Positions 12,160-31,072 of a stretch of 64,000 nt of DNA are shown piece after piece; the stretch's first letter is position 1; each line of letters begins with the position of its first letter. Location: the NCBI GenBank assembly GCA_964421635.1, contig CAYQWZ010000004.1:15652-79651 (forward strand), in the 5' to 3' direction. The translations under genes were made by a program, and so were the position numbers. The notes under the pieces were generated by a model, which was not told the DNA's origin, made no database searches, and was given only the letters and a program-made list of their open reading frames with translations. This DNA is from an uncultured Candidatus Saccharibacteria bacterium. GTDB taxonomy: Bacteria; Patescibacteriota; UBA1384; CAILIB01; JAUSJZ01.

Positions 12160-12165
12160 ATTTGC

Positions 12166-13141: not shown

Positions 13142-14020
13142 ATGGCAATGAAACAAAAAATAATCTTTTTCGGCACTCCGGTAATAGCCGCCCACACCCT
13201 ACAAAAATTGAACTCTAAATTTGATATTGTTTTAATAATTACGGAACCCGACAAACCTTCAGGTCGTGGCTTAAAAACAGAACCTACACCTGTAAAAAAG
13301 CTCGCCAAAAAACTGAACCTGAAAATTGCTCAACCCAAAAATAAGCAAGAAATTACCAACATTTTAAAGAAGAAAAATGCAAACTTGGGAGTTATCATCG
13401 CTTACGGTCAAATATTGCCTCAAGAAGCCATTAAAAGCGTTTCTGGGGGCATTTTGAACATTCATGGCTCAATATTGCCTAAGTACAGAGGTTCGTCACC
13501 TATTCAGCAGGCAATTTTAAACGGAGATAAAACCACTGGCGTTACTATAATGAAAATTAATGAAGGAGTAGACACAGGCGATATTTTAGCTACTAAAAAG
13601 GTCAAAATTGCATTTAACGACACTACTGCCACACTGGCTCAAAAACTAGTTGAGGTCGGCACAAAACTACTAATAGAAGTAATTCCAAAATATCTCGACG
13701 GCCAAATAAAGCTTAAAGCTCAACCAAAAAAAGGCAGTTTGGCGCCAAAAATTACGAAAGATATGGGTCAAATCAATTGGTCAGATTCAGCCGAAAAAAT
13801 TGACAGACAGATTCGAGCCTTTCAGCCTTGGCCAAAATCCTTTACTACATACAATAATAAAAGATTAATCATTCACCAAGCAAAAATTGTAAATAAACAG
13901 TTAATTCCGCAAATTGTGCAAATTGCCAACAAAAAAAGTACCAGCTGGCAAGATTTTCTGAATGGTCAGCACCTAACGCAAGATCAAGCCTTGAGCGAAA
14001 TATTGCGCCAAAACACTTGA
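13142..14020 (+). CDS. fmt: methionyl-tRNA formyltransferase
   Basis: IIFFGTP N-terminus and the formyltransferase core (HGSILPKYRGSSPIQQAILNGD). It is the canonical partner of def. Confidence 0.9.
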   Translation: MAMKQKIIFFGTPVIAAHTLQKLNSKFDIVLIITEPDKPSGRGLKTEPTPVKKLAKKLNLKIAQPKNKQEITNILKKKNANLGVIIAYGQILPQEAIKSVSGGILNIHGSILPKYRGSSPIQQAILNGDKTTGVTIMKINEGVDTGDILATKKVKIAFNDTTATLAQKLVEVGTKLLIEVIPKYLDGQIKLKAQPKKGSLAPKITKDMGQINWSDSAEKIDRQIRAFQPWPKSFTTYNNKRLIIHQAKIVNKQLIPQIVQIANKKSTSWQDFLNGQHLTQDQALSEILRQNT

Positions 14021-14068: not shown

Positions 14069-14452
14069 ATGGTAATTATAAGATTGCGTCGGGGCGGAAG
14101 ACGTCACGAACCACATTACAGAATTGTAGCTCAAGAGAAGCGTTCAAAATTGAACGGTGCTTTTATTGAGAGTATCGGTCATTATCATCCGGCTACAAAA
14201 GATAAGGAGCTGGTGATAGACGCTGACCGAGCTAAATATTGGCTTGCACAAGGTGCACAGCTTTCTGTAACCGTAAATAATCTTTTTGTAAAAGAAGAAA
14301 TATTACCTAAAAAAAATAAGATTAGCCGAGTGTATAATAAGAAAAAGAAGAAAGATGAAGAAGGTGAAGAAAAGAAGGAAGAGGTCAAAACAGAAGAGAA
14401 AGCAGAAGTGAAAGAAGAGAAAGAGAAGGAAGAGAAAACAGAAACCAAATAA
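14069..14452 (+). CDS. rpsP: 30S ribosomal protein S16 with KE-rich C-terminal extension
   Basis: MVIIRLRRGGRRHEPHYRIVAQEKRSKLNG...GHYHP is canonical S16. The C-terminal ~45 aa are a lysine/glutamate-rich low-complexity tail. Confidence 0.9.
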   Translation: MVIIRLRRGGRRHEPHYRIVAQEKRSKLNGAFIESIGHYHPATKDKELVIDADRAKYWLAQGAQLSVTVNNLFVKEEILPKKNKISRVYNKKKKKDEEGEEKKEEVKTEEKAEVKEEKEKEEKTETK

Positions 14453-14485
14453 ATTTATAGAAAAATCGAAAAGTAAAGAATAGAT

Positions 14486-14899
14486 ATGACAGAAGAAAAC
14501 AAGGATGTACAGTTCGTCGAAACTGTCACCAAAATGCTAGTAGAACAACCAGATATGGTTGAGGTTAACAGAACAGTTGATGACTTGGGTGTTTTAATCA
14601 CACTTAAAGTCGCAGCCGCTGACATGGCTACAATAATTGGTCGTGAAGGAAGAGCTGCTAAAGCTGTTAGAACATTGTTAAGAATTATCGGCGCTAAGAA
14701 AAATGAGCGCGTTAATCTAAAGATTGTTGAGCCTGAAGGTAGTGAGCATGAATCTGCTCCAGCCAGACAAGTATCAGAGGCTCCAGCTGAGGAAATTCCG
14801 GCAGAAGAGGCGCCAGTTGAAGAAGCCCCAATCGAAGAAGCGCCAGCTGAGCAACCTGAAGATGACATTTTGGGAGATATTCCAGAACCATTAGCTTAA
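14486..14899 (+). CDS. KH-domain RNA-binding protein (YlqC/UPF0109 family) with acidic proline/alanine-repeat tail
   Basis: KH motif VIGREGRAAKAVRTLLRI in the conserved rpsP-KH-trmD position. The C-terminus is EAPAEE/EEAPVEEAPIEEAPAE repeats. Confidence 0.7.
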   Translation: MTEENKDVQFVETVTKMLVEQPDMVEVNRTVDDLGVLITLKVAAADMATIIGREGRAAKAVRTLLRIIGAKKNERVNLKIVEPEGSEHESAPARQVSEAPAEEIPAEEAPVEEAPIEEAPAEQPEDDILGDIPEPLA

Positions 14900-18379: not shown

Positions 18380-19135
18380 ATGGTAAGCCAAGCAAGCGAA
18401 AAGGTTGAGCTGCAAGCAGTCAGCCGAGATGACAAGAAAGCCAAGCATATTAGAAAAGAAGGATTCGTTCCGGCAGTTTTGTATGGCAAGAAAACAGACA
18501 ACAGAAATATTCAAATAAATACTTTAAAGTTGGCTGCCCTATTGCGAGAGCACGGCACCACCTCTTTGATTGATTTAAAGATAGATAAAGAGAAAGAGAT
18601 AAAAGTGCTAATTCGCGAGCCTCAATTTAATCCGGTGACTTATGATCTTGTACATACAGATTTTTATAAAGTAGATCTTACCCAAAAAATTACTTCTGCT
18701 ATTCCGGTAGTATTTAAAGGCCATAGCCCTGCGGTTGAAGATTTGGGTGGTTCATTAATTGAAACCAAATCAGAAGTTGAAGTTGAGTGTTTGCCACAAG
18801 ACTTGCCATCTGAGCTTGTGGTTAAAATTAGTGCTTTGAAAACTTTTGAAGATGTTATGCATGTTAGCGACATTGAAGTGCCAGCTGGCGTTGAAATTTT
18901 AGATGAACCAAATGAAGTACTAGCATCTGTCGCTGAGCCTCGCTCAGAAGAAGAATTGGCTGCCCTAGACGAAGATATTGAAGAGAATGTTGAAGATGTT
19001 GAAGTTGAAGGTGCCGAAGAAGGTGAAGAAGGCGCCGAGGAAGAAGGTGAGGGTGCAGAAGGTGATGTTGATTCTGAAGACAGCGAAAAACCAGCTGAAG
19101 ATAAATCCAATAGTGGTGAAGCCAAAGAGGCTTAA
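18380..19135 (+). CDS. rplY: 50S ribosomal protein L25/general stress protein Ctc with acidic tail
   Basis: VSRDDKKAKHIRKEGFVPAVLYGK...VHTDFYKVD matches the L25/Ctc N- and beta-barrel domains. The last ~60 aa are strongly acidic (EEGEEGAEEEGEGAEGD). Confidence 0.85.
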   Translation: MVSQASEKVELQAVSRDDKKAKHIRKEGFVPAVLYGKKTDNRNIQINTLKLAALLREHGTTSLIDLKIDKEKEIKVLIREPQFNPVTYDLVHTDFYKVDLTQKITSAIPVVFKGHSPAVEDLGGSLIETKSEVEVECLPQDLPSELVVKISALKTFEDVMHVSDIEVPAGVEILDEPNEVLASVAEPRSEEELAALDEDIEENVEDVEVEGAEEGEEGAEEEGEGAEGDVDSEDSEKPAEDKSNSGEAKEA

Positions 19136-20315
19136 AAGCTATTCAATCTTCGCTATTGGTTGTCAACAGAATTGGTATGACGCTGAGAAAATTGCGCACA
19201 CCCTAGATCTTTTGAAATTGTTCCCCGAAAATGTCGACACTGCCGACTTAGTTGTTGTTCTGGCTTGCGCCGTTAGACAAAAGTCTGTCGATAAACTTTA
19301 CGGATTCATTAATAAGTGGCGCAAAAGCAAAATTTCCCGCCATATAGTTTTGACCGCCTGCGTACTGCCCGAAGACAAACTGACTTTCAAAAGTAAAGTT
19401 GACGCCATTGTCGAAGATCAAAAAATCCATCAGTATTTAATTAACCTCATCTCCCCGCAGATTTCCCCGCAGAAAAAGTTCTCACCTGCTAATTTGCCAG
19501 CCAGCCACCACCCAGAAGGATTAAACCTAAAATTAAACGAAGACCACGCTTTCGTCCCTATTACTTTTGGCTGTAATAATTTCTGTACTTTCTGCGCGGT
19601 GCCCCACACGCGCGGTCGCGAGACAAGTCGGCCCAAGACTATAATTTTGGCCGAAATAAATAAGCAGTTAAAGCTAGGAATTAAAAAGATTACGCTGCTT
19701 GGCCAGAATGTGAACTCGTACAGATTGTCGGACTTCAACCCCCGCGACCTGCGCAAGAATAAAGATCGCAGCGGTGCCAAGTGGTCTAAGAGTAATCCTT
19801 CGCCATTCGTCGAACTGTTACGCGATATTGAAAAATTTGAAGAGCTCGAGAGTTTGTCATTTTTAAGTCCGAATCCTCAAGATATTGCCAGCGACTTAAT
19901 AGACTATATGGGCACCTCAAAAAAGTTTTCTCGCACGCTGAACCTGCCGTTGCAAAGTGGCAGCGATAAAGTTTTGAAGCAGATGAACCGCCGCTATACT
20001 ACCAAAGAATATTTGGCATTGGTCAAAAAGATTCGCGCTGCCGTACCCGACATCGCTATTTCCACCGATATTATTGTCGGCTTTCCGAATGAAACGAAGA
20101 AAGATTTTCAGGCCACAGTAGATATCTGCCAGAAAATTAAATTTAATAAAATTTTTATTGGCATATTTTCTGCGCGTCGTGGTACCACCGCCGCCAAAAT
20201 TTATAAAGACAATGTAGAGTTGAGAGAAAAGAAACGCCGCTTCAAAGTGCTGAATGAATTAGTGAATAATCAGAAGCTGATAGTCAACCCAGTTACAGGC
20301 GGACGGTTTGAATAA
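19113..20315 (+). CDS. radical-SAM methylthiotransferase (MiaB/RimO family)
   Basis: MTTase N-domain Cys triad (FAIGCQQNWYDAE, VVVLACAVRQ), radical-SAM CxxxCxxC (GCNNFCTFCAVPHTRGRE), and a TRAM-like C-terminus. The first ~45 codons of the ORF-track call overlap rplY in another frame and are not credible. A GTG near 19113-19116 is a plausible start. Confidence 0.75.
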   Translation: MVKPKRLKSYSIFAIGCQQNWYDAEKIAHTLDLLKLFPENVDTADLVVVLACAVRQKSVDKLYGFINKWRKSKISRHIVLTACVLPEDKLTFKSKVDAIVEDQKIHQYLINLISPQISPQKKFSPANLPASHHPEGLNLKLNEDHAFVPITFGCNNFCTFCAVPHTRGRETSRPKTIILAEINKQLKLGIKKITLLGQNVNSYRLSDFNPRDLRKNKDRSGAKWSKSNPSPFVELLRDIEKFEELESLSFLSPNPQDIASDLIDYMGTSKKFSRTLNLPLQSGSDKVLKQMNRRYTTKEYLALVKKIRAAVPDIAISTDIIVGFPNETKKDFQATVDICQKIKFNKIFIGIFSARRGTTAAKIYKDNVELREKKRRFKVLNELVNNQKLIVNPVTGGRFE

Positions 20316-20379
20316 ATAATAAATATATTACGACAAGATAATCTGTTTGTAATATACGATGATGTAGTTTTAAAGTACT

Positions 20380-20532
20380 ATGAAACTAATGACAAAACGC
20401 AAATCGCAAAAGAATTCTGATAATAAAGATGTGAAGCTTCCTAAGGTAGTGGAGTCTTTAATTATCCACGAAAAGCCAAAAAATGCTAAGAGTGTAGAAA
20501 AGATTCTTAACGAAATGCGTTACGGTTCTTAA
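20380..20532 (+). CDS. small ORF (50 aa) immediately upstream of the PIN gene, candidate antitoxin
   Basis: ATG at 20380, a basic N-terminus (MKLMTKRKSQK...), and a stop 5 nt before the PIN start codon. The position and size are typical of VapB-type antitoxins. No fold could be assigned. Confidence 0.3.
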   Translation: MKLMTKRKSQKNSDNKDVKLPKVVESLIIHEKPKNAKSVEKILNEMRYGS

Positions 20533-20537
20533 TTTGC

Positions 20538-20999
20538 ATGTCAAAATGCATTTTATTGGTAGACGCTAATGTTTTTTCTTCTTTGTTACACAAAGATGAC
20601 GCTTTGCATAGAAATGCCAAAGAAATCTTTGAAATAATATCAAAAAATAATAAGGTAAAAATTATTGTTCCACCCATAATACTATACGAAATTTGTACAG
20701 TAGCACTTAAAAAAGGAATCGATAAAAAGATAATCAAAGAAAAAACTCAGAGAATTATTGACTGGAATAAGGTTTCTATTGTTTCTTTATCTGAACTTTC
20801 TATATATAAACACATTAATAGAACTGCTAGGAATCATGTAAGAGAACCAGCTATTAAAACAAATGACCTAATTATTCTCAACACTGCACTAGAACTAGAT
20901 GCAGCTTTAGTGTCAACAGACAAAAAACTACTAAAAAGCGCTAAAAGACTAAAAGTGCCTTGTTGTAGAAATAGTGAAGATCTACTCGGTCTTCTTTGA
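20538..20999 (+). CDS. PIN-domain protein (VapC-like ribonuclease toxin)
   Basis: The N-terminal ILLVDANVFSSLL carries the first PIN acidic residue, with conserved acidic positions downstream. The ~150 aa size fits a standalone PIN toxin. Confidence 0.65.
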   Translation: MSKCILLVDANVFSSLLHKDDALHRNAKEIFEIISKNNKVKIIVPPIILYEICTVALKKGIDKKIIKEKTQRIIDWNKVSIVSLSELSIYKHINRTARNHVREPAIKTNDLIILNTALELDAALVSTDKKLLKSAKRLKVPCCRNSEDLLGLL

Positions 21000-21030
21000 A
21001 ACCGCATCACAATGCAAACAGTAATCACAT
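20996..21030. repeat. 35-bp imperfect direct repeat, copy A (degenerate copy of the 3' end of the Cas4-like nuclease gene)
   Basis: TTGAAACCGCATCACAATGCAAACAGTAATCACAT here versus TTGAAACCGCATCGCGATACAAACAGTAATCGCAC at 22064-22098. That is 30/35 identical, and all five differences are transitions. Confidence 0.7.
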
Positions 21031-21190
21031 AATCTTTTCTTAATCTAACATCCGCCACAATCACTACGGCGCTGGCAACGGCCCGAACAACAACGGTACC
21101 AGTCATGGTGCCTACACCGGTCGCGGCTCCAAGTAGAGTACCCAGTCTGCTCTTCGCGAGAAGGGCAGACTATACTAGAATAAAAATAAC

Positions 21191-21508
21191 ATGACAAAAA
21201 AAAGAAAAGAAGGAAACGCTTATCTAATTCCACCCCGTGGCACTCGTAAAACAGTCGCTCGAATATTAGTACAGTTAACTGATGAAGCAGTAGATGATCA
21301 AAAGAAGTTGCAGCAACTATATGTACTGGCTGACAGATTACGCTATTTTCTAAATACTGACCAAGAAGATATTCATAATGGTTTAGGTACAGAAATTGCC
21401 TGCTGGATAGGCCTACTAATCACCACACACGAAATGGGTCTTGAATATCGAAAAAACCTTATTGAGATATTTCCTGAAGAGCTCGATATATTTGCAGACT
21501 CCAAGTGA
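21191..21508 (+). CDS. hypothetical protein (105 aa), translationally coupled to the CYTH gene
   Basis: ORF with no recognisable motif. Its TGA stop overlaps the GTG start of the next gene (GTGA). Confidence 0.4.
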   Translation: MTKKRKEGNAYLIPPRGTRKTVARILVQLTDEAVDDQKKLQQLYVLADRLRYFLNTDQEDIHNGLGTEIACWIGLLITTHEMGLEYRKNLIEIFPEELDIFADSK

Positions 21509-22056
21509 ACAAAGAAATTGAAGTAAAAATTGAATTAACCAAGAAAGAATTTAATTCTTTAGTTAAAAATTTTACTAACCCTGACTTAGAAAAAACCTAC
21601 GGTTATTTTAAAGATGATTTTTCAAATATTAAAGAAGGCATTTTCCCACGCATAAAAACTATTACGGGTGAAAATAACAAAATATTATTTGCTGTTAAAA
21701 GAAAAGTAGAAGATAATGATAATTTTTTCGAAAGGGAAGAGTTAGAAGTGACAGTTCAAGAAGAGAAAGAAAGTGTCGAGATGTTACGATTAATGCTTAA
21801 ATCTTTGGGTTTTACCAAAGAAATCATTTTTGAAAAGAAACGAAAAAATATAGTTAAAAAAGATATCGTCATCTCATACGATCATCTTCCCTTTGGTTAT
21901 TTTGTTGAATTTGAAGGTGCACCTAAAATCATTGAACAATATTTAAAAGAATATAAGTTAACTAAAAAACCACGCATCACTAAAGCATATTTAGCTCTTT
22001 GGTACGACTACAAAGAAAAGAATAATATATCTAAAGATAACTGCGAATTTAACTAA
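21505..22056 (+). CDS. CYTH-domain protein (triphosphate tunnel metalloenzyme / class IV adenylate cyclase-like)
   Basis: The N-terminal EIEVKIEL matches the defining CYTH EXEXK motif, and the ~180 aa size matches CyaB/thiamine-triphosphatase-like enzymes. Confidence 0.65.
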   Translation: MNKEIEVKIELTKKEFNSLVKNFTNPDLEKTYGYFKDDFSNIKEGIFPRIKTITGENNKILFAVKRKVEDNDNFFEREELEVTVQEEKESVEMLRLMLKSLGFTKEIIFEKKRKNIVKKDIVISYDHLPFGYFVEFEGAPKIIEQYLKEYKLTKKPRITKAYLALWYDYKEKNNISKDNCEFN

Positions 22057-22058
22057 TA

Positions 22059-22817
22059 TTATTCGGTTTTTGAAACCGCATCGCGATACAAACAGTAATC
22101 GCACTCTTCGTTAGCTTTAGGCAGCTTCTTCGACTTCAAACATTTATGGGCAGCTATAATAGATTGCTCAACCCAAGCATCGTCACCCTTATGAGCTATC
22201 AAAGTGACATCGAACTCTAATTTAGCGTCAAAGGCCTTCTTATCAGTATTACCGTTGCAGTAAACAAAGTAGCCGGTATCTGAGACCGGCAAACCTTTCT
22301 GTCGCAACAGCCACTGATAAATCTCCATCTGCCGTTTGTATCCGTCATGCCAATCTTGGTCAAGGATAGTAATCTCATCGTTCTTACTCGTCGCTTTATA
22401 ATCTACGACTATGTACTCCCCCGCACTATTAATCCATAAATCATCAATGGCACCCGTAATGGTTAAGCCCGTCGGTTCGTGAACAATAGATACACCCTTG
22501 AAGTTCTCTCGCCATTCGTCTAGCTCTTCGTGGGCTACGGGCTTAGCGTCAATGCCATATTTTTCTTGTAGCGGATGCTGCTTGTCTTTCGCCCGATAAA
22601 GGTCAAACTCTTTTTTTAATAATGTGTCAACGGCTGTATTTAGGTTAAAAGGATATCCCTTTGGTCGCCCCAACCCCAAACGGTTGTCTAAATAAAAACA
22701 ACGCGGGCATTGTAAAAAGAGGTCGAGTTTAGATCGGCTAAGTTTAAACTGGTTCTTGGTAGTAGGATTAAAGTTCCAGTTGCTATTGCGCGGGATTTTG
22801 TAGTATTTAGACATCAC
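22059..22817 (-). CDS. Cas4-like PD-(D/E)xK nuclease with Fe-S cysteine cluster (RecB-family, DUF83-like), no CRISPR nearby
   Basis: N-terminal CPRC, motif II IDDLWI, motif III VVDYK, the QxxxY motif (RQMEIYQWL) and C-terminal C-x12-C-x2-C. Its start overlaps the stop of the tandem-HEPN gene by 4 nt. Confidence 0.6.
   Translation of the reverse strand: MMSKYYKIPRNSNWNFNPTTKNQFKLSRSKLDLFLQCPRCFYLDNRLGLGRPKGYPFNLNTAVDTLLKKEFDLYRAKDKQHPLQEKYGIDAKPVAHEELDEWRENFKGVSIVHEPTGLTITGAIDDLWINSAGEYIVVDYKATSKNDEITILDQDWHDGYKRQMEIYQWLLRQKGLPVSDTGYFVYCNGNTDKKAFDAKLEFDVTLIAHKGDDAWVEQSIIAAHKCLKSKKLPKANEECDYCLYRDAVSKTE
22064..22098. repeat. 35-bp imperfect direct repeat, copy B (inside the 3' coding end of the Cas4-like nuclease gene)
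   Basis: See copy A at 20996-21030. The two copies bracket the two-gene CYTH cassette. Confidence 0.7.
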
Positions 22818-23905
22818 AAATTATTTTTTATCAATTCAGGTAATTTAACGCGTAACAGATTTAAAAAGTCATCTGCTAATTTTTTACAATTAATATGCCA
22901 TCTGTCAGCTTCGTAAATGTAACTAATAGCCTTGCCTTCTGAATCAATACTTAAATCGTATGGTCCATCTGACTTTTTTCCAAAATTATGTACTAGATTG
23001 TGCCTAAATATTTTTACAATATCGTCTCTGATATTACCTTCGTCATCAACAATCTCATTGTAATTTTGATTTTTTTTGTTACGCTTACAATCTATTACAT
23101 CTTTGTCATATAGTTCCTTTAATGTTCTCTTTACGTTAAGGTTTGTATTACCATCGATACCAAACTTATCATTAAAGATTGATCCCCAAACATCAAATAA
23201 TGCTGCCAATAAAACAGCGTAAGAATTAGATGGTCCTTCGAAATTGCTCGTTGAATAATTGTACGAAAAAGTTTTGCTATAGATATTCTCGATATCTCTT
23301 ATTGTCCATGTATACAGCCTAACTAGTAAATCAATTTTTATTGTTTTTATTCTTTCAGGTTTTGGTTCCATTATTGAATTATAAACATGAATAAAATTAT
23401 CTTGAAGATCACTATTGTTTTCAAGCATTTTAACATAACCAGTGTTGTCATTGATCACTGAGTCTTCAATGTCTTGTGCCAGAGTAAAAATACTCACCCA
23501 TAGCTTCTTAATGCCATCGAACTCCTCAATAATTAAATGTTTTGATCTATCATTGTGAATATATGCCCAAGTATATTTTTGATGTCCACAGTATACTGTT
23601 GGCTGCATCATAGCCTGATGTACTAAGGGATGACGGAATATATTCTGTACTAAAAAGGCTACATTTTCTTTTTTATAACTCATTCTGTCTTCCATATATT
23701 TTCTGGCATTATATGAAACACTGTATTTACTGGTAGAACCCTTATATAAAGCGCCCAATAAGTCTATTGTGGAGAAACAGTATAATAAACCAGGAAAAGG
23801 AGCTATGCCATCATCTTTTAAGACACAGTGCCTAACGTCCTCAATTAATGAATTTATTCTGTCGTTAAGAAATATTCGGGCTTCGTTTGAATTAAATTCC
23901 TTCAT
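22814..23905 (-). CDS. protein with two Rx4H (HEPN-like) motifs, candidate RNase/abortive-infection-type effector
   Basis: Two copies of IFRH-LVH (FRHPLVHQAMMQ and FRHNLVHNFGKK) each match the HEPN R-x4-6-H motif, suggesting an internally duplicated HEPN protein. It lies between hsdR and the Cas4-like nuclease with overlapping junctions. Confidence 0.45.
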   Translation of the reverse strand: MKEFNSNEARIFLNDRINSLIEDVRHCVLKDDGIAPFPGLLYCFSTIDLLGALYKGSTSKYSVSYNARKYMEDRMSYKKENVAFLVQNIFRHPLVHQAMMQPTVYCGHQKYTWAYIHNDRSKHLIIEEFDGIKKLWVSIFTLAQDIEDSVINDNTGYVKMLENNSDLQDNFIHVYNSIMEPKPERIKTIKIDLLVRLYTWTIRDIENIYSKTFSYNYSTSNFEGPSNSYAVLLAALFDVWGSIFNDKFGIDGNTNLNVKRTLKELYDKDVIDCKRNKKNQNYNEIVDDEGNIRDDIVKIFRHNLVHNFGKKSDGPYDLSIDSEGKAISYIYEADRWHINCKKLADDFLNLLRVKLPELIKNNL

Positions 23906-23915
23906 TTATTCAAGC

Positions 23916-26867
23916 CTACTCCTCGTTAGTTTTATCTAATTTTTCATACACCTCTTCAAACATTTTTTCTTTCACAAACTTACCAAATTCCGCATTTTCT
24001 ACAATCTTTTTGTATATATCAAAATTAGACTCAACCATAGTGTGCAATTGATCCTGAAAGATATGGGCAAAAACAAGCTTGAGAGCGTCTTTGTTATTTG
24101 TTTTGGCGCTTTGACTCAAGGTTTCGTTTCCTGTCAATCTCGTTTGTAGTTCGGCAAAGAATACTTTGTCACCTTCGGTGAAGTCAGTACCAAATCGTTC
24201 GTTCACTTCGTCAATTATGCGCGACAAAAATTCTTTTTCTTCGCCCATACCTTTACCTGTTCCCAGTCCCTCAATCGGCTTCAATTCACCGGTCTTTTTC
24301 TCCAGTTCAATATTGCCGCTGGATATTTGCTGGATGCGGTAAGTGTCCATATTCACATTGTCGGTAATTTCCACCGGCAATCTTTCTTTTTCGGCAGGTA
24401 ATTTACGCCCAAACATTCGCAAAAAGGCATAAAGTTTTTCTAAGTTCACATCCTTAAACGAGACAATCTGCGATAAGAAGGCATACATACGGACATAGTT
24501 TATTAATTGATCACGGAAATCAATTTTTTCTTTTTTTTCGCGCTTTAAATATTCTTCGACAATCGGGTCCAAAAGCGGATGTAGTTTTTCTTGCGTTGCT
24601 CCACGCTTGAAAAATACTTTGGCAAAGCTCTCCACATCATCTTTGGTAAAAATATCAAAATCAAGCAAGTTGCGCTCCAAATCATAAAGCTTGTTCGGGT
24701 CGGTTGCTTTGGTCAAAATCGCTTTGTCGTAATACGGCTGAAATGCTTTTTTTATTTCTTCTTCATAGTTGGCAAAATCCAAAACCAGCGTGTCCTCTTT
24801 ACCTTTGGTAGTGCGATTGAGCCGGCTCAAGGTCTGCACGGCCATCACACCACCTAATTTTTTATCAACATACATCGTATGAAGCAAAGGCTGATCGAAT
24901 CCGGTCTGGAATTTATTTGCTACTATCAAAATCTTAAATTCAGGTAATTTAAAGGTGTCGGCGGTGAGTTTATCGCTTCGCAAACCATTCATTCCGGCTT
25001 CGGTATATTCTTTTCCGCCGTCAGTTACCGTGCCGGAAAATGCCACCAAAGTTTTGATAGAATACTTGTGTTCTTTGATGAACTTGTCAAAAGCAAGTTT
25101 GTAGCGCACTGCGTGCAAACGCGAACGGGAGATAATCATCGCTTTGGCGTAGCCATCAATTTTGTGCGTAGTGTGCGACAGATAGTGTTCAATAATTAAT
25201 TCTGTTTTTTTACCAATAGCATGGTCATGCAACTCCACATATCCTTTTAAGAGCGCGATGCCCTTTTTCTTTTCATACTGCGGATCTTCTTCGGTTTTTT
25301 TGATCAAATTAAAGTAGGTCTGGAAGGTGGTGTAATTTTTTAAGACATCCAAAATAAAACCTTCTTCGATAGCTTGTCGCATTGAATACAAGTGAAAAGG
25401 TTCAAAAGTGCCATCGGCTTTTTTGGTACCGAAAAGTTGCATAGTTTTATCTTTCGGCGTAGCAGTAAAAGCAAAGAAGCTGATATTTTTTTGTCTGCCT
25501 CGGCTTGATAATTCCGCCAAAATCGCGTCTTCGCTCGTTAACTCTTCTTCGTTCTCATTCTCTGTTTCCGCTTCTTCCAGTGACCCAAGTGCTTTTTTTA
25601 AACTCTTGGTGCTCTCCCCAGATTGCGAAGAATGCGCCTCGTCAATAATCACGGCGAATTTTTTGCCTTCTTGTTTGATAAGTTCCTCCACGATGTAAGG
25701 AAATTTTTGCAAAGTGGAAACAATAATTCTTTTGCCAGATTCCAGCGCTTCTTTAAGTTGTTTTGAATGTTCGTCAATCGCCGCCACTACACCCTCCACT
25801 TGCGCGAATTGCCTGACTTCATCGCGAAGCTGTTTATCAATCACGCGTCGATCGGAAATAACAATCGCGGTATCAAAAATTTTCTGATCATTAGCATCGT
25901 GTAAACTGGAAAGTTTGTGAGCAAGCCATGAAATTGTTTTTGTCTTTCCACTTCCGGCGCTGTGCTGAATGAGATATTGCTGTCCGGCTCCGTGCTCTCG
26001 CGCGTGAGCCACCATTTTTCGCAGTGCATCCAACTGATGATAGCGCGGAAAAATAAGCGTCTCTTTTTCTTTTTGATTACCTTCCTCGTCCGTTGTCTTT
26101 TCAATAGATACGAGCATAAATTCGGCAATAATCTGAAGCAGGCTGTTTTTTTGCAAAACTTCTTCCCATAAATACGCGCTCTTGAACCCGCTCGGATTCA
26201 CCGGATTGCCAGCGCCGTTTTCAAAACCTTTGTTAAACGGCAAAAAGAATGTGGATTTGCCAGCCAAACGCGTGGTCATATACACGAGATCATTATCTAT
26301 GGCGAAATGCACCAAACAGCGCTTAAAGGCAAAAAGATCTTCGCGCGGGTCGCGGTCATAGCGATATTGTTTGATGGCGTCCTGTACATTTTGTCCGGTC
26401 AAATAGTTTTTGAGCTCCAGCGTAGAAATCGGCAAACCATTCAAGAAAATGACAGTATCAAGCGACTTGCCGTCTTTTTGGCTAAACTTCACCTGTCGCA
26501 TTATGGAAAAAATATTGTTCTGGTGGAGTTGGGCGTGTTCCGGATTCAAGGTGCTTTCGGGCGCAAAATACACCAATTGAAAACGCGAACCATAATCGGC
26601 AAAACCTTTGCGAAATACATCTAAAATCCCACGCGATTCAATTTCTGTTTTGAGACGATAAACAAATTTTGATTTTACTTCTTCGCCGTGCTGTTCTTTG
26701 AGTTTCTCCCATTCTTTTGGCTGGGTGGCGTAGATAAATTCAAAAAGCATTTCCTCGTCCATGCAGGATTCGGCATTGTAATTTTTTGGCTCACGTGCAC
26801 GATAGCCGGAAGCGGTCAAAACCGTTTCAATGTGCGCTTCAAATGACTTTTCTGATGTATCAATCAT
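23916..26867 (-). CDS. hsdR: Type I restriction enzyme R subunit (HsdR)
   Basis: 983 aa with an N-terminal PD-(D/E)xK region, SF2 helicase motifs (QHSAGSGKT, VIIDEAHSSQSG, and TGFD within the motif-VI region) and a C-terminal helical domain. Confidence 0.9.
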   Translation of the reverse strand: MIDTSEKSFEAHIETVLTASGYRAREPKNYNAESCMDEEMLFEFIYATQPKEWEKLKEQHGEEVKSKFVYRLKTEIESRGILDVFRKGFADYGSRFQLVYFAPESTLNPEHAQLHQNNIFSIMRQVKFSQKDGKSLDTVIFLNGLPISTLELKNYLTGQNVQDAIKQYRYDRDPREDLFAFKRCLVHFAIDNDLVYMTTRLAGKSTFFLPFNKGFENGAGNPVNPSGFKSAYLWEEVLQKNSLLQIIAEFMLVSIEKTTDEEGNQKEKETLIFPRYHQLDALRKMVAHAREHGAGQQYLIQHSAGSGKTKTISWLAHKLSSLHDANDQKIFDTAIVISDRRVIDKQLRDEVRQFAQVEGVVAAIDEHSKQLKEALESGKRIIVSTLQKFPYIVEELIKQEGKKFAVIIDEAHSSQSGESTKSLKKALGSLEEAETENENEEELTSEDAILAELSSRGRQKNISFFAFTATPKDKTMQLFGTKKADGTFEPFHLYSMRQAIEEGFILDVLKNYTTFQTYFNLIKKTEEDPQYEKKKGIALLKGYVELHDHAIGKKTELIIEHYLSHTTHKIDGYAKAMIISRSRLHAVRYKLAFDKFIKEHKYSIKTLVAFSGTVTDGGKEYTEAGMNGLRSDKLTADTFKLPEFKILIVANKFQTGFDQPLLHTMYVDKKLGGVMAVQTLSRLNRTTKGKEDTLVLDFANYEEEIKKAFQPYYDKAILTKATDPNKLYDLERNLLDFDIFTKDDVESFAKVFFKRGATQEKLHPLLDPIVEEYLKREKKEKIDFRDQLINYVRMYAFLSQIVSFKDVNLEKLYAFLRMFGRKLPAEKERLPVEITDNVNMDTYRIQQISSGNIELEKKTGELKPIEGLGTGKGMGEEKEFLSRIIDEVNERFGTDFTEGDKVFFAELQTRLTGNETLSQSAKTNNKDALKLVFAHIFQDQLHTMVESNFDIYKKIVENAEFGKFVKEKMFEEVYEKLDKTNEE

Positions 26868-26868
26868 A

Positions 26869-27216
26869 TTATTTTTTCGTTAAATATAGACAAACAATAT
26901 AAATTATTAAAGATGGTATCCCAACCGATAAAGCTAATGTCCAATTTTGTGTAGGGATAACTCCGACTGCAAAACCAAAACCCGCGGATGATATAAATTC
27001 AAAAAAAGTGATTAGCCAATAATTTTTTAGCTTTTCTTCCAAAATAACATTTCTTTTTTCAATTTCATATTTTTCCGTGCGTATCTTTTCTGCTTCATCC
27101 TGCGTCTTCTTCAAAGATGCTTCCAAATTATTTATTTTTTCGGACATCAATTTATATGCCGTCGTGGTTGACTGCTCTTTCTTTGTCAGCGTGTTTTGTG
27201 ATTTATTCTTCGCCAT
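26869..27216 (-). CDS. small coiled-coil protein with C-terminal double transmembrane hairpin, embedded in the R-M operon
   Basis: N-terminal heptad-rich region (LEASLKKTQDEAEKIRTEKYEIEKRNVILEEKLK), then two hydrophobic helices. Its stop abuts the hsdR start. Confidence 0.4.
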   Translation of the reverse strand: MAKNKSQNTLTKKEQSTTTAYKLMSEKINNLEASLKKTQDEAEKIRTEKYEIEKRNVILEEKLKNYWLITFFEFISSAGFGFAVGVIPTQNWTLALSVGIPSLIIYIVCLYLTKK

Positions 27217-27217
27217 A

Positions 27218-27586
27218 TCAGTTAAAAAGTTCAGTTAATGATATTGGCGACCAACCAAATGATTTTATTGGTTTAATGTTCGGTATTTGTGGAATAGCTG
27301 GAATTGGCGGTATTTGTGGAATAGCTGGAATTGGCGGTATTTGTGGAATAGGAAAAATCGGTGAAGGAAAATCGTTTGAATGCTGTGAGAAACCCGCAGT
27401 ATTGCCGTACAAATCCCTAATCACATATCCTTCAATCCAACCGCAATGCCTACCTCTATAATTGTAAATATATTGGTTGTCTTTTACATATCCAAGATTG
27501 TGTCCGTGGCGATTAAAAAATCTGCCTTGCCCATCAAGGATTATTTGCGCTGTTCCGTATCGATCAAAAAACCAAATGTTATTCAT
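27218..27586 (-). CDS. small beta-rich protein with proline/isoleucine nonapeptide tandem repeat, embedded in the R-M operon
   Basis: The N-terminus is Gly/Tyr/aromatic-rich (YIYNYRGRHCGWIEGYVIRDLYGN). The C-terminus is 2.6 copies of IPQIPPIPA, encoded by a perfect 27-bp tandem DNA repeat at ~27290-27360. Its start overlaps the hsdS stop by 8 nt. Confidence 0.4.
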   Translation of the reverse strand: MNNIWFFDRYGTAQIILDGQGRFFNRHGHNLGYVKDNQYIYNYRGRHCGWIEGYVIRDLYGNTAGFSQHSNDFPSPIFPIPQIPPIPAIPQIPPIPAIPQIPNIKPIKSFGWSPISLTELFN

Positions 27587-28934
27587 AATTTTTTATCATA
27601 ATTTTACCCGTTACGGCGCTGGTAATAAGCGCCTGTCGGTATTCTCGCAGTTTTTCAATCTGCATTTCTACTTTTTTCATCATCCCATCAATCTTTGCAC
27701 TTTCGTGGTCAATATAGTCAGCAATCTCTTTTTGCAGTGAATAAGGTGGCAATGTGATAATCAAATTTTCAATGACACCCATGCCAATATTTTGTTGCGT
27801 TCCATATGACCATGAAAACTCTACTTGATCATGAAATAATTTACTCAACAAAGAGTAAAATAAAAATATATATTGTGATTTCTTCTCATCCGCTCTAATC
27901 AGTGCCAAAGGTGACCAAATACTAAATTCAAAATCCACCTCAACTATTGCTATATTGCCGGTAGTAGCTCCGGATTTGATAAGAAAAATATCATTTTTTT
28001 GCGGTTTACATTTTTTTGAGTATAGTTTGTGAAGTTCCTCGGAAATAAAACCTCGTCTTAAATCAAAATTAATTTTTTCATTTTTTACAGCTTCGGCAGA
28101 AATAAAATTGACACCTTCGTCCAAAATTTCCGGGGTTTCGTGCGGGCCATCTGTGATTTTTATTCCTACAACTCGTTTAAGTGGTAAAGCCTGCCACCTT
28201 TCCGGAATATCACCCAGCCAGTCAATGCCGGAGGGTTTCATTTTTGCCTTCGGATCAAGGCCTTTGGTGACGGCGTGGGTGATGAGCGCTTGGCGTTTTT
28301 CTTTGAGAAGCGCCATCATCTTTTGCTTTTTCGCCACCATCTCATCAATTTTTGCCGTCTCACGGTCGAGAAAATCTGTGATCTGTTTCTGTTCATCCTT
28401 CGGAGGAGCAAATAAAAATGACTTACTTATAAATCCAGAATTCAATCCAGGTTGTGCCGAACCCCTCATTTCTAAAAATATTTGTTCTTGCCCAATCTTC
28501 GAGATTATAAAATAATATAAATATTTTGGAGTATTTTTATTGTTTGCTCTGATAATAAAAACATGTTCATTGACCGCAGCATCTTCCAAAAACGATTTAC
28601 CAATCAAAGCTGTTTTCCCAATAGTTGCGCCATCTTTAACTAATAAAACATCATTTTCTTTTATTTTACCTTGATTCATTTGGAGATAGTATTCTCGAGA
28701 AATGTATCTTGGATTCTCCAATAGTATTTCTCCATTCCATCCAACATGCTCACCGCCAATACTTAACACGCCACCGTCAAGATTGATGGATTCTGATTCA
28801 CGACCACCGCTTTGTAGTGGCTCTATAATATTTTTCAGCCGTTTCACTTCCCACCCAGTCGGAATATCGCCCAACCAGTCAATGCCGGAGGGTTTGTACT
28901 TGGAATATGTTTTGTATTTTGTCGCGGTTGTCAT
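27579..28934 (-). CDS. hsdS: Type I restriction-modification specificity subunit (HsdS)
   Basis: Two target-recognition domains separated by duplicated conserved regions (KPSGIDWLGDIPTGW and KPSGIDWLGDIPERW), plus coiled-coil spacers. Confidence 0.85.
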   Translation of the reverse strand: MTTATKYKTYSKYKPSGIDWLGDIPTGWEVKRLKNIIEPLQSGGRESESINLDGGVLSIGGEHVGWNGEILLENPRYISREYYLQMNQGKIKENDVLLVKDGATIGKTALIGKSFLEDAAVNEHVFIIRANNKNTPKYLYYFIISKIGQEQIFLEMRGSAQPGLNSGFISKSFLFAPPKDEQKQITDFLDRETAKIDEMVAKKQKMMALLKEKRQALITHAVTKGLDPKAKMKPSGIDWLGDIPERWQALPLKRVVGIKITDGPHETPEILDEGVNFISAEAVKNEKINFDLRRGFISEELHKLYSKKCKPQKNDIFLIKSGATTGNIAIVEVDFEFSIWSPLALIRADEKKSQYIFLFYSLLSKLFHDQVEFSWSYGTQQNIGMGVIENLIITLPPYSLQKEIADYIDHESAKIDGMMKKVEMQIEKLREYRQALITSAVTGKIMIKNYE

Positions 28935-28936
28935 AA

Positions 28937-29443
28937 TTAAATATCCATTAGCATTTTGGCGATTTCATCTTCCAGTTTTTTAATATCCCCGCCAATTTCA
29001 TCAAGCGGTCGCAAGGGTTTGTATTCATAAAAATAGCGCGTAAAACTAATCTCGTAGCCTACCTTGCCGATCTTGCCGTCTTTGTGATCGCAGTATTTCT
29101 TATCTTCGCTAATCCATGCGTCCGGCACATGTGGCAGGACTTCTCGCTTGAAATATTCGGTAATATCTTCGCCAAGCGAGACATTTTCATAATCGCGTAA
29201 ATCAACATCCGATTCAGGATTGCCTTTTTTGTCGGTAATGACATCGGCTGTTTCGTCGCGTTCGGAAAGACCTTTGAGAATGGCTTTTTTGACGGGAGCG
29301 TCTAGCTTAAGATTCGCTTTTTTGAAAGCTTGCTCTAATACTTCAATAAATTTTTCTTGATTTTTATAAAGTGTGTCGCCGATAGTGGCGAGTGTTTTCT
29401 GAATAGAAATTTGCAGAGCAAAACCGGCTTTTTCTTCTTCCAA
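28937..29443 (-). CDS. HsdM C-terminal-domain-like ORF (TTG start), in frame with hsdM across a single TAA: split hsdM or pseudogene candidate
   Basis: Same reading frame as the hsdM ORF at 29483-30967, separated from it only by TAA at 29483-29485 plus 13 sense codons. It has no ATG start. The content (VGYEISFTRYFYEYKPLRPLDEIGGDI) resembles the C-terminal region of long HsdM proteins, from memory. Confidence 0.45.
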   Translation of the reverse strand: MEEEKAGFALQISIQKTLATIGDTLYKNQEKFIEVLEQAFKKANLKLDAPVKKAILKGLSERDETADVITDKKGNPESDVDLRDYENVSLGEDITEYFKREVLPHVPDAWISEDKKYCDHKDGKIGKVGYEISFTRYFYEYKPLRPLDEIGGDIKKLEDEIAKMLMDI

Positions 29444-29482
29444 TTTTTTAAGCGGATCGCGCTTCTTGCTTTTAGCAAGATT

Positions 29483-30967
29483 TTAGAAAGTGGATTCGGC
29501 TTTCAGTCTTTCTAAACGCTCGGCGCTGGCTTGAAAATTAAGTTTGAGCGGGCGCTCAACGGTAATTTTGCGATAGCCAAAAAATTCATTCGGAAAGACT
29601 TTGACGATTTTACTTTTTTCGCCGTCCAAAGTAAGTTCGGTAATTTTTTGGATTTGTTCGTCAGAAATGACATTGCGTTTGTCGCCCAAGCTCTTGCGCA
29701 TTTTTTCGTAGAGATCAACTGCATTGATGAGTTTTACTTTACCCTTGTGATGATCTTTTTTGCGATTGGTCAGGACCCAAATATAGGTATGAATACCGGT
29801 ATTATAAAAAAGCTGGTTTGGTAGAGCAATGATTGTTTCCAGCCAGTCATTTTCAATAATCCAACGGCGAATTTCGCTTTCACCGCTTCCGGCATCTCCT
29901 GTAAAGAGTGGCGAACCATTCATAACAATCGCAATACGGCTTCCGCCGTTAGATGGTTTGATTTTAGTAAGCATTGTTTGCAGGAATAGCAATTGGCCGT
30001 CGCTAATTCGCGGAAGGCCGGCGCCGAATCGACCTTGAAAGCCGAACTCCGCTTCTTTTTCAATTTCTTTTTGATCTTTTTTCCATTCCTTGCCGTAAGG
30101 CGGATTGGAAAGCATATAATCAAAGGTTTCGCCAAAGAGATGATCGTGTGAAAGAGTGGAGCCAAATTTTATATTGTCAGCATTTTCGCCTTTGATCAGT
30201 AAGTCAGATTTAGCAACGGCGAAAGTTTCCGGATTTACTTCTTGACCAAACATTTCTACTTGAGCAGTATCATTTACGCTTTCCAAAATCCATTTTTTGG
30301 CTTCGGTAAGCATGCCACCGCTTCCGCAGGCCGGATCGTAAATTGTTTTAATAATGCGTTGTTTTTTCAAAATTTCCATGTCCGGCGAAAACAACAGATT
30401 GACCATCAGGCGGATAATTTCGCGCGGAGTAAAATGTTCTCCGGGATTTTCATTTGACGCTTCGTTAAACTTGCGAATCAATTCCTCAAAAACATAACCC
30501 ATTGCCAGATTGCTCACGCAATCTGGGTGCATTTCAACTTCGCTGAATTTTTCTATGACTTGATAGGTAAGATTGGCTTCTTCGAGTTTTTTTATTTGAC
30601 TTGAAAAATCAAATTTATCAAAAATTTCTCGCATTAGAGGGCTATATGCATTAAGGTACAAATTTAGATTTTTACCAATATTTTTTGGATCGTCTAAAAG
30701 TTTTTTGAAATCGTATTGTGAAGTATTATAAAAATTGTATCCGCTGGCTTTTTTTAAAATTCCGTCCATAGCTTCCAACCTACCTTTGTATTTTTCATAC
30801 TTTACCAACACATCAGCTTTAGTGTCTTCAAGCGCGGCATCAAGACGGCGCAGGACAGTAAGTGGTAAAATAACATCCGGATATTTCGCACGCTTAAAGT
30901 CATCACGTAAAAGGTTGGCGATGCTCCAGATGAAATTGACGATTTGTTGGTGATTAATTTCATTCAT
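29483..30967 (-). CDS. hsdM: Type I restriction-modification DNA methyltransferase subunit (HsdM), N-terminal and catalytic part
   Basis: HsdM_N helical domain, AdoMet motif I (IYDPACGSGGML), catalytic motif IV NPPYG, and the downstream helical region FGYRKITVERPLKLNF. Confidence 0.9.
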   Translation of the reverse strand: MNEINHQQIVNFIWSIANLLRDDFKRAKYPDVILPLTVLRRLDAALEDTKADVLVKYEKYKGRLEAMDGILKKASGYNFYNTSQYDFKKLLDDPKNIGKNLNLYLNAYSPLMREIFDKFDFSSQIKKLEEANLTYQVIEKFSEVEMHPDCVSNLAMGYVFEELIRKFNEASNENPGEHFTPREIIRLMVNLLFSPDMEILKKQRIIKTIYDPACGSGGMLTEAKKWILESVNDTAQVEMFGQEVNPETFAVAKSDLLIKGENADNIKFGSTLSHDHLFGETFDYMLSNPPYGKEWKKDQKEIEKEAEFGFQGRFGAGLPRISDGQLLFLQTMLTKIKPSNGGSRIAIVMNGSPLFTGDAGSGESEIRRWIIENDWLETIIALPNQLFYNTGIHTYIWVLTNRKKDHHKGKVKLINAVDLYEKMRKSLGDKRNVISDEQIQKITELTLDGEKSKIVKVFPNEFFGYRKITVERPLKLNFQASAERLERLKAESTF

Positions 30968-31072
30968 ACAACAAACTACTTAAGGTTTTAATAATTTCAT
31001 AATTTCTCCATACTTGCATGTGTTAATGAATCTGCTCTACTATACCCGTTATTAACCTGTGAATCAACCTTT

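Follow-up and report, generated by a model that had tools for sequence, protein, structure and literature searches.

The sequence overlapping the end of the PIN gene in this locus is, with high probability, a 3'-end relic of a PD-(D/E)XK nuclease gene and the scar of a recombination event. In our best model this scar is of an ordinary, known kind, one that recurs beside conserved genes in Patescibacteria. The relic, or stub (20982-21029, minus strand), consists of 15 codons and a stop (CDYCLHCDAVSKKTE, then the stop) and is homologous to the last 14 codons and stop of the intact nuclease gene (22059-22103, minus strand; CDYCLYRDAVSKTE, then the stop). It sits 1 kb downstream of that gene, with foreign genes between, inside a 10.7-kb island. 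The analysed stretch of DNA, here called the window, comprises 64,000 nt from an uncultured Candidatus Saccharibacteria bacterium (GCA_964421635.1, contig CAYQWZ010000004.1, positions 15,652-79,651 of the forward strand), and coordinates are positions within it.

The repeat pair and the nuclease relic

The original prediction placed imperfect direct repeats around a unit made of a gene for a 105-aa protein and a CYTH gene, and this arrangement is confirmed: an ungapped 35-nt block at 20995-21029 recurs at 22069-22103, within the nuclease coding sequence, with 31/35 identical positions. The coordinates given earlier (20996-21030 and 22064-22098) were off by one for the first copy and by five for the second, and the identity of 30/35 has to be raised, while the statement that all differences are transitions stands (all four are A/G exchanges). 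The second copy covers the nuclease codons for CDYCLYRDAVSK and is not, as had been described, the last 35 bp of the coding sequence, since 10 further nt, the stop codon among them, follow it. Nor does the first copy follow the PIN stop; the stub contains that stop (20997-20999) together with the last five PIN codons. Allowing one in-frame indel of 3 nt extends the similarity across the nuclease stop codon (20982-21029 against 22059-22103), and in this extended alignment 38 of 45 aligned positions match. The seven mismatches are all transitions (P = 0.008-0.06 for 7/7).

When three mismatches were allowed, the 35-nt repeat had two copies in the 64-kb window, against none expected from 100 dinucleotide shuffles. 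This agrees with the earlier view of a scar rather than a generic motif. REP- and MITE-like motifs have many copies genome-wide and are usually intergenic and palindromic; here there are two copies in 64 kb, one of them coding. More than 12 contigs, which come from at least 10 samples and were built with different assemblers, share 100% identity over 20300-22900, and an assembly artefact is excluded because these independently assembled contigs show the identical arrangement. Samples with this strain include ERZ27248922, ERZ27248885, SRR8437246 and SRR8437277, as well as JGI 3300005645 and 3300028276.

Read on the minus strand, 20982-21029 matches the nuclease C-terminus as far as the stop, and we therefore identify it as a 3'-terminal stub of the nuclease gene. 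It runs from the first Cys codon of a CDYC motif to the stop codon, is co-oriented with the intact gene and reads in frame as the C-terminal motif of the nuclease family; its own stop is kept and the indel is a whole codon. A start codon is absent and an in-frame stop lies upstream. This in-frame similarity to a conserved protein motif supports the proposal of an insertion or recombination scar. The stub also appears, as had been thought, to be non-functional, since H and C replace the Y (77/78) and R (54/78) of the family, and these changes at conserved residues show that at least part of its divergence is decay after displacement.

Five of the seven differences between the stub and the intact end are at third codon positions (P = 0.045), and over 14 codons pS is 0.50 and pN 0.059 (Fisher P = 0.008 against equal rates; P about 0.07 against a half-neutral model, calculated from the pS/pN counts at few sites); taken alone, these statistics are weak, coming from a stub of only 15 codons. 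The synonymous type of the differences, the in-frame indel and the retained stop fit the displaced end of a diverged functional allele, and they do not favour the earlier idea of a duplicated target decaying neutrally. The stub's boundary lies about 14-15 codons before the nuclease stop, and microhomology is not evident at this junction (21029/21030).

Genomic context of the relic

The island (20316-31072) lies between a MiaB-like gene (19116-20315, plus strand) and ThrS (31073-32860, minus strand). In relatives MiaB and ThrS are back to back, 200-255 nt apart, or other genes follow MiaB. From the adjacency of the two genes in relatives we therefore take the whole 10.7-kb block, which those relatives do not have, to be an island, and the same comparison bears out the suggestion that the locus is variable. 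The order within the island is PIN module, stub, CYTH cassette, nuclease and type I restriction-modification genes. The VapC-like PIN gene (20538-20999, plus strand) is preceded by a 50-aa ORF (20380-20532, plus strand), a possible antitoxin judging from position only. Codons 149-153 of the PIN gene and its stop are the antisense of the stub, and PIN family homology stops at about residue 148-150.

The nuclease gene (22059-22814, minus strand) encodes 251 aa with a PF12705 PD-(D/E)XK domain and a Cas4-like C-terminal CxxC. As called it begins at an ATG, and its start overlaps the stop of a 363-aa gene (22814-23905, minus strand) with only distant, half-length homologues, which separates it from HsdR. 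Type I restriction-modification genes occupy 23916-30967 on the minus strand, together with small accessory ORFs, and include HsdR (23916-26867), Bflower (27218-27586), HsdS (27579-28934) and HsdM (29483-30967).

A sequence search of the PDB with the nuclease gave zero matches. The gene is conserved and widespread in Patescibacteria, where it is found in housekeeping contexts, and more than 8,000 loci of it are on record. We considered that it might be a component of the type I restriction-modification operon or an obligate defence gene, and rejected this, as HsdM or HsdR lies upstream of it in only 5/80 loci and there is no consistent co-occurrence with hsdRMS. The phrase 'end of the defence operon' in the original prediction is thus right for the position of the nuclease here and wrong for its role, and the reading of it as a dedicated defence gene is corrected.

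The segment between the two copies

The two copies are separated by 1,039 nt (21030-22068), made up of a 161-nt spacer followed by the 105-aa and CYTH genes on the plus strand, convergent with the nuclease. The inserted segment begins on the left with the spacer (21030-21190, plus strand), whose core (21050-21170) has a GC content of 60%, compared with 39.5% across the window. The spacer also holds a 12-bp hairpin (21144-21171), and its plus-strand fold has z = -3.8. Elsewhere in the window, a GC-rich block of 960 nt lies at 12150-13110. No RNA family was detected in the spacer or the repeat by Rfam (gathering thresholds over the whole window, E<=10 on 20300-22300), and the translated spacer had no Pfam match. 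The orphan 105-aa ORF (21191-21508, plus strand) overlaps the CYTH start by 4 nt; no family was found for its product in Pfam, NCBIfam, PHROGs or PADLOC, and its single-sequence AlphaFold2 model had a pLDDT of 50, too low for use in a fold search. The CYTH-domain gene (21505-22056, plus strand) encodes 183 aa with an N-terminal ExExK motif, and its stop is 2 nt from that of the convergent nuclease gene.

In 5/6 other CYTH contexts the gene has a QueC-like partner, which is absent here, and this fits the window cassette being a fragment of a donor locus. A QueC-like gene usually precedes CYTH, and the idea that the 105-aa ORF or the spacer is what remains of it was rejected, since tblastn gave only non-collinear matches with E>0.2.

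We found no terminal inverted repeats at the cargo ends (21030/22058) and no attC-like imperfect inverted-repeat sites at the cassette ends; there is no integron integrase in the window. Transposase genes are absent from the cargo, whose genes are CYTH and the orphan ORF, and motif expressions and Pfam applied to 36 window ORFs revealed no integrase or recombinase in the cargo, island or window. Searches for the segment on phage, plasmid or viral contigs gave nothing or one irrelevant locus.

An empty site, with nuclease and PIN genes adjacent 3' to 3', had been suggested as a check; it was sought in databases and not found. Exact-protein look-ups with CYTH and PIN returned only contigs of the identical strain, all with the cassette, close homologues of the 363-aa protein were absent, and the nearest genome relatives lack the entire island. 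The search for a donor gave similar results: among 80 genomes no CYTH, 105-aa, PIN or 363-aa match lies within 8 kb of the nuclease, and the nuclease is absent from 6/6 CYTH contexts. Neither the donor order (nuclease, then CYTH-105) nor a pre-insertion strain was found among the 80 nuclease loci, the six CYTH contexts and the 363-aa and PIN look-ups. In at least 10 samples no excision or polymorphism of the cassette was detected.

Comparable stubs in other genomes

Terminal stubs with integrase-free cargo occur beside the nuclease in 3/80 other genomes (L020, L012 and L022) and beside MiaB in 4/80 loci (L113, L116/L127 and L156). These loci share one geometry, that is, an intact gene, cargo and a co-oriented terminal stub, and no recombinase was found in the cargo of comparable loci, including the three beside the nuclease. 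In L020 a nuclease 3' stub lies 1.5 kb downstream of the gene as a 55-nt repeat, and a truncated ClpP-like ORF is fused to it at 12-13 nt of microhomology. This junction is about 25 codons before the stop, 21 nt upstream of the position of the Cys codon at which the window stub begins. L012 has a 204-nt nuclease 5' stub of 99% identity with its junction at about codon 71, at the 5' end of the gene. In L022 there is a ghost of the nuclease start and end, with a boundary within 2 nt of that of the window stub, at the first Cys codon. This shared boundary could hint at a preferred site.

Compared with their intact genes, the longer stubs bear a clear signature of purifying selection, with pS/pN of 0.43/0.12 (L020), 0.46/0.11 (L127) and 0.71/0.19 (L156). 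As they differ mainly at synonymous sites, they look like the ends of diverged alleles and not like decaying target duplications.

Origin of the relic

On balance we consider the outer copy to be the 3' stub of a formerly resident nuclease allele, displaced and left behind by one-sided homologous and illegitimate recombination; our preference for such C-terminal displacement over the rival mechanisms is about evenly poised. In this mechanism the incoming DNA, from another lineage of Patescibacteria, would have carried a nuclease allele together with its downstream CYTH gene, 105-aa ORF and GC-rich spacer. Homology within the conserved nuclease gene, or upstream of it, would have let this DNA pair with the resident locus, and an illegitimate joint would have tied its non-homologous far end to a point inside the resident gene, 45-48 nt short of the stop. 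The body of the resident gene would have been replaced, and its last 15 codons would remain beside the old convergent neighbour, the PIN gene, which would have overlapped the resident nuclease allele by 18 nt. The process would be homology-facilitated illegitimate recombination and would need no dedicated recombinase. The geometry of an intact gene, cargo and a co-oriented terminal fragment, present here, supports displacement. Patescibacteria are naturally competent (PMC10633639), and for this reason uptake by natural transformation is plausible. The all-transition pattern of the differences, which displacement does not specifically predict, counts against it, as do the two changes at conserved residues, the lack of visible microhomology at the window junction, the boundary shared with L022, the weak statistics of so short a stub, and the negative searches for a donor arrangement and a pre-insertion strain.

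Site-specific integration is an improbable alternative. Here the 45-48-nt repeats would be attL and attR of a small element, degraded or mobilised in trans, that targets the nuclease 3' end and brings a substitute for it, much like integrase-borne islands at tRNA or dusA genes. The direct repeats flank the segment exactly at the 3' end of the gene and its reading frame is restored, in L020 too cargo has entered the 3' end of the nuclease gene, with a 55-nt repeat, the relics of the window and of L022 begin at nearly the same Cys codon, and a substitute end borne by an element would also diverge synonymously. However, no recombinase is present in the 1-kb cargo, the island, the scanned window ORFs or the cargo of the three nuclease loci, and the segment is absent from the phage, plasmid and viral contigs searched. 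The same type of stub is also seen at an unrelated gene, MiaB, and the junctions vary, lying 14 codons from the stop in the window, about 25 from it in L020 and at about codon 71, at the 5' end, in L012. Such differences in junction codon among independent cases, of which four are available at the nuclease, tend to argue against a single att site.

We judge a Campbell-type insertion-duplication to be similarly unlikely. A circle of at least about 1.07 kb, on which the terminal 45-48 nt of a nuclease allele adjoined the CYTH-105-spacer segment, would have entered the 3' end of the resident gene by a single homologous crossover and duplicated that terminal part. Cloned gene fragments yield just such an order of complete gene, insert and 3' fragment, with L012 as the mirror image, and one repeat boundary here coincides with the stop codon, where homology ends. 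Yet 45 nt that are 84% identical, and perfectly matched over 14 nt at most, make a very poor substrate for a RecA-dependent crossover, prior circularisation is required, and the truncated ORF fused at microhomology in L020 is left unexplained.

The mechanism favoured by the original prediction, in which an insertion duplicated a 35-48-bp target in situ and the outer copy then decayed neutrally, is less probable again. The relic is non-consensus at two conserved positions, its differences are exclusively transitions, and with few sites half-neutral divergence has a P of about 0.07, all of which would suit it. Target-site duplications of transposons and insertion sequences have a fixed length of about 2-15 bp and are identical at insertion, but the repeat here is 45-48 nt with seven substitutions and a 3-nt indel, and 48 bp far exceeds transposase target duplications. 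Terminal inverted repeats and transposase are both absent, and the third-position enrichment, in-frame indel and retained stop, with analogous longer stubs that are clearly diverged alleles, also speak against it. A chance match, generic repeated motif or assembly artefact has only the short repeat length in its favour and is negligible, given zero expected copies in shuffles, the in-frame conserved motif and more than 12 identical contigs.

Relation to known recombination systems

C-terminal displacement and orphan modules have been described for Rhs, CDI and T6SS loci (Kirchberger et al. 2017, PMC5361080; Jackson et al. 2009, as cited in PMC5361080). There, as we propose here, a conserved part of the gene is the homology anchor and the old 3' end is pushed downstream, resulting in an intact gene, new cargo and a co-oriented orphan 3' fragment without involvement of an integrase, and homology-facilitated illegitimate recombination is the mechanism proposed. 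In contrast to those loci, what is displaced is not a polymorphic toxin but a small conserved nuclease (MiaB elsewhere), the stub has 15 codons with neither an orphan immunity gene nor an array of successive stubs, and the cargo is unrelated to the function of the displaced gene.

Homology-facilitated illegitimate recombination itself is known from transformable bacteria (de Vries & Wackernagel 2002 and Prudhomme et al. 2002, both as cited in PMC5361080) and from a study of E. coli conjugation (PMC3240628). A one-sided anchor and an illegitimate joint trap foreign DNA, sometimes with part of the anchor gene left duplicated, and the microhomology at the L020 joint is a further likeness. Unlike in those studies, the process is deduced here from sequence only, the window joint has no visible microhomology, and donor and anchor were not found.

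Two kinds of island are also similar. Integrase-borne islands with dusA-specific integrases insert in the end of a protein gene and restore it (PMC4482086); they share with this locus direct repeats at the gene terminus and an incoming substitute end that keeps the gene intact, and they differ in that this locus has no integrase and just 1 kb of cargo, and junctions are placed differently from case to case. The microcin H47 island is small, with imperfect direct repeats and no recombinase of its own (PMC3191183, PMC5426353), and so resembles the short cargo seen here; its mobility has been demonstrated experimentally, whereas at least 10 samples show zero excision or polymorphism at this locus.

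Implications for gene gain in Patescibacteria

We take the stub to mark the arrival of the CYTH cassette and of the present nuclease end, by recombination into an existing nuclease-PIN junction. Patescibacteria have few recognisable mobile-element genes, and terminal stubs of conserved genes may be a cheap marker, readable from sequence, of past gene capture and its polarity in uncultivated members of the group. We tentatively speculate that conserved genes such as the nuclease and MiaB are preferred anchors for integrase-free cassette capture in Patescibacteria, by transformation and one-sided recombination; less probably, a recombinase supplied in trans uses the nuclease 3' end as its att site. 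If the anchor reading is true, stubs, seen in about 4% of loci here, would be a general footprint, not previously described, of the building of defence and accessory islands in reduced genomes. Stubs were found for 5/160 conserved query genes and 5/1150 other ORFs of the same loci (P = 0.004), an enrichment that is expected if conserved genes are homology anchors, and if it holds, homology-anchored illegitimate recombination would be a routine route of gene gain in Patescibacteria.

A terminal stub of the nuclease gene

Repeat search identified a single 35-nt direct pair (20995-21029 and 22069-22103; spacing 1,074 nt) in which 31/35 positions are identical and all four mismatches are A/G transitions. 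The direct repeat originally predicted around the CYTH-domain gene is thus real, with its second copy shifted by 5 nt and the identity corrected from 30/35. On the minus strand the second copy codes for residues CDYCLYRDAVSK of a 251-aa PD-(D/E)XK nuclease, here called N (22059-22814, minus strand), while the first copy reads CDYCLHCDAVSK. Allowing one in-frame 3-nt indel, the similarity of both copies extends through the stop codon: CDYCLHCDAVSKKTE plus stop in the outer copy (20982-21029, minus strand) and CDYCLYRDAVSKTE plus stop at the end of N (22059-22103, minus strand). Of 45 aligned positions 38 match, and 7/7 mismatches are transitions. Because the in-frame similarity reaches the stop codon in both copies, the outer copy is a co-oriented stub of the last 15 codons of N. 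A chance match or generic motif is excluded by this similarity and by the presence of only two copies in the 64-kb window, with 0 expected (up to 3 mismatches; 100 dinucleotide-preserving shuffles).

The stub has no start codon and is immediately preceded by an in-frame stop. It had been placed after the stop of the VapC-like PIN gene, but PIN (20538-20999, plus strand) ends inside it, its final five codons and stop being the antisense of the stub. At the stub boundary, about residue 148-150, the alignable part of the PIN family stops. More than 12 independently assembled contigs from at least 10 samples share the arrangement with 100% nucleotide identity across 2.6 kb, which rules out an assembly artefact; none of them showed a polymorphic empty site.

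The surrounding island and the cargo

The window comes from a Patescibacteria (CPR) chromosome and is rich in housekeeping genes. Its nearest relatives were located by a metagenome scan with the adjoining MiaB-like protein. In three of them (L097, L098 and L099) trmD-UvrB-L25-MiaB is followed directly by a convergent ThrS gene after a gap of 200-255 nt, and in a fourth (L096; 74-82% amino-acid identity) other genes lie downstream of MiaB. On this comparison 20316-31072 is a 10.7-kb island, comprising a 50-aa ORF and PIN, the stub, a spacer with a 105-aa ORF and CYTH, N, a 363-aa orphan and a type I restriction-modification (R-M) system of HsdR, HsdS, HsdM and small accessory ORFs. Within the R-M string, the 363-aa orphan (22814-23905) has only distant homologues, about 200 aa long and matching half of its length, and a 168-aa orphan (28937-29443) matches the C-terminal end of phrog_34860, a PHROG without assigned function (830 positions, E = 7e-32).

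N matches PF12705 and, weakly, Cas4; a PDB search with its sequence gave no match. Its homologues of 60-75% identity number more than 8,000 across CPR phyla, in heterogeneous and often housekeeping neighbourhoods, and hsd genes lie upstream in only 5/80 GTDB species-representative loci centred on N. N is not a dedicated defence gene: its original description as the end of a defence operon holds only for its position here.

The segment between the copies begins with a 161-nt spacer whose core (21050-21170) has 60% GC against 39.5% for the window. A 12-bp hairpin (21144-21171) lies upstream of the 105-aa ORF, and the fold of the core has a z-score of -3.8 (plus strand). Rfam gave no family and Pfam no match for the spacer, and nothing like it occurs in any of the loci compared; the core may be a leader RNA, a truncated donor gene or a foreign fragment. 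The 105-aa ORF is an orphan with an uninformative AlphaFold model (pLDDT 50). The CYTH stop lies 2 nt from that of N. CYTH is one of about 150 proteins in a CPR family, and the CYTH start overlaps a QueC-like gene in 5/6 contexts read. In the window the unrelated 105-aa ORF stands in place of this partner, which suggests that the cargo is a fragment of another locus. The 105-aa ORF was also tested as a QueC-like remnant, with no support. In other Patescibacteria (L088, L094, L180, L182 and L184) a QueC-like PP-loop gene, the partner that the window CYTH has lost, ends within the CYTH homologue, and three of the five (L094, L182, L184) also have a thymidylate-synthase-like gene upstream. These three genes form a conserved module, possibly for nucleotide modification.

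Stubs at other loci

In three further N loci out of 80, a fragment of N accompanies the intact gene. The one in L020 is a 55-nt 3' fragment (93% identity) lying 1.5 kb downstream, with its own, different C-terminal tail and stop (GGYEK against EVCK), fused to a truncated ClpP-like ORF at a 12-13-nt microhomology. In L012 the fragment comes from the 5' end (204 nt, 99% identity) and lies 1.9 kb upstream, with an AAA_14/DUF4143 ATPase gene intervening. In L022 a ghost right after RecQ, 3.3 kb upstream of intact N, retains the start (ATGAGTCA) together with the final codons (YCDYCSYVKAINSR) and the stop. The junction codons differ among these cases; the window stub and the L022 ghost start near the same Cys codon, and the L020 fragment 21 nt upstream of it. 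Two smaller repeats were seen here. In L020, a 50-nt GC-rich hairpin/T-run, terminator-like motif occurs twice in the cargo downstream of the nuclease (8836-8884 and 9516-9565; 94% identity), flanking a histidine-phosphatase-like gene. In L012, a 61-nt direct repeat (3577-3637 and 5228-5288; 90% identity) tightly flanks the ATPase gene; it is nested in the 204-nt duplication, and the two repeat pairs are not ordered as in a simple tandem duplication.

The phenomenon is not restricted to N. Among 80 MiaB-centred loci, MiaB stubs were found at L113 (5'; 1022-1276), L116 and L127 (3', about 50 codons; 14415-14563 and 11840-11997) and L156 (3', about 130 codons; 12332-12739), 1-5.5 kb from intact MiaB and with 1-5 kb of intervening cargo that contains no recombinase. 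These fragments derive from diverged alleles and represent the same type of scar at a different gene. At the protein level (1,310 ORFs), terminal stubs accompany 5/160 conserved query genes and 5/1,150 other ORFs (odds ratio 7.4, P = 0.004), a comparison in which central genes have longer flanks and diverged stubs are easier to detect at conserved genes. Stubs at 4% of loci and their enrichment at N and MiaB, from a small and biased survey, hint that integrase-free capture of cassettes in Patescibacteria may routinely be anchored in conserved genes and leave terminal stubs as its footprint.

Divergence of the stubs

In all four loci compared, synonymous divergence between stub and intact end (pS) far exceeds non-synonymous divergence (pN): 0.50 against 0.059 in the window, 0.43 against 0.12 in L020, 0.46 against 0.11 in L127 and 0.71 against 0.19 in L156. 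Of the 7 differences in the window stub, 5 fall at third positions of codons (P = 0.045); the indel spans a single codon and the stop is kept. Such a pattern is typical of alleles that each remained functional as they diverged, rather than of an in-situ duplicate drifting, although for the 15 codons of the window stub alone P is about 0.07 against a half-neutral expectation. The longer analogue stubs can exclude the in-situ model, whereas the window stub alone does not. Some decay has nevertheless taken place, since the window stub has H where 77/78 family members have Y, and C where 54/78 have R and 0/78 have C. Of the neutral decay proposed for the outer copy, this part stands, and the third-position, in-frame-indel and stop pattern speaks against the rest.

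Origin of the arrangement

The geometry of the stub is plausibly that of a displacement scar left by homology-facilitated illegitimate recombination (HFIR), a mechanism suggested for the orphan 3' ends of Rhs, CDI and T6SS loci (PMC5361080 and works cited in it). Incoming DNA carrying an allele of a conserved gene with its own flanking genes would pair via that gene or sequence beyond it, and its heterologous end would be joined illegitimately inside the resident allele, giving the order intact gene, cargo, co-oriented terminal stub, old neighbour. Here the resident N would have converged on and overlapped PIN, and the donor N would have converged on the CYTH-105-aa ORF unit; the end of the donor fragment would be the GC-rich spacer at 21030, attached to the resident CDYC motif at its first Cys codon. 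Saccharibacteria have been shown to be naturally competent and to carry out homologous recombination (PMC10633639), and competence genes occur widely across the group (PMC12455944), which makes a transformation route plausible. No look-up (80 N loci, CYTH contexts, PIN and the 363-aa protein) returned the donor arrangement or a pre-event or empty site, and membership of the HFIR class is inferred. Among the closest known kinds are C-terminal displacement scars in polymorphic-toxin loci, whose geometric definition the arrangement fits, and experimental HFIR products; we regard the finding as a further instance of this known kind of scar. Also close are islands brought in by an integrase that rebuilds the end of a gene (dusA; PMC4482086) and small recombinase-less islands with imperfect repeats (microcin H47; PMC3191183, PMC5426353).

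A Campbell-type single crossover with a circle carrying the 45-nt gene end remains an alternative whose geometry fits, although its homology would be very short, at just 84% identity. Site-specific integration, by an element either degraded or mobilised in trans, would account for repeats at a gene end, but is weakened by the variable junctions, the MiaB cases and the want of a recombinase: no integrase, transposase or terminal inverted repeats accompany the cargo, the island or the scanned window ORFs, in contrast to integrase islands, which a recombinase defines. Phage, plasmid and viral searches gave nothing relevant. The original reading as a recombination or insertion scar is kept. Its proposal of an insertion that duplicated its target in situ, followed by neutral decay, is disfavoured by the repeat length, the absent transposon features and the substitution pattern.

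Other observations in the window

Between def (11591-12100) and fmt (13142-14020) lies a block of about 960 nt (12150-13110) whose GC content of 59-64% stands against 39.5% for the genome. A convincing ORF, tandem repeats and Rfam matches at E<=1 are all absent, and the block folds much more stably than shuffles (z = -5.3 on the plus and -8.3 on the minus strand; 20 shuffles each), making it a candidate large structured RNA or foreign GC-rich fragment; L098 and L099, with 51-57% GC overall, are uninformative on it. Direct repeats of 84-111 nt (76-100% identity) at 47490-48129, within a 635-aa ORF (47310-49217), indicate a repeat-containing protein.
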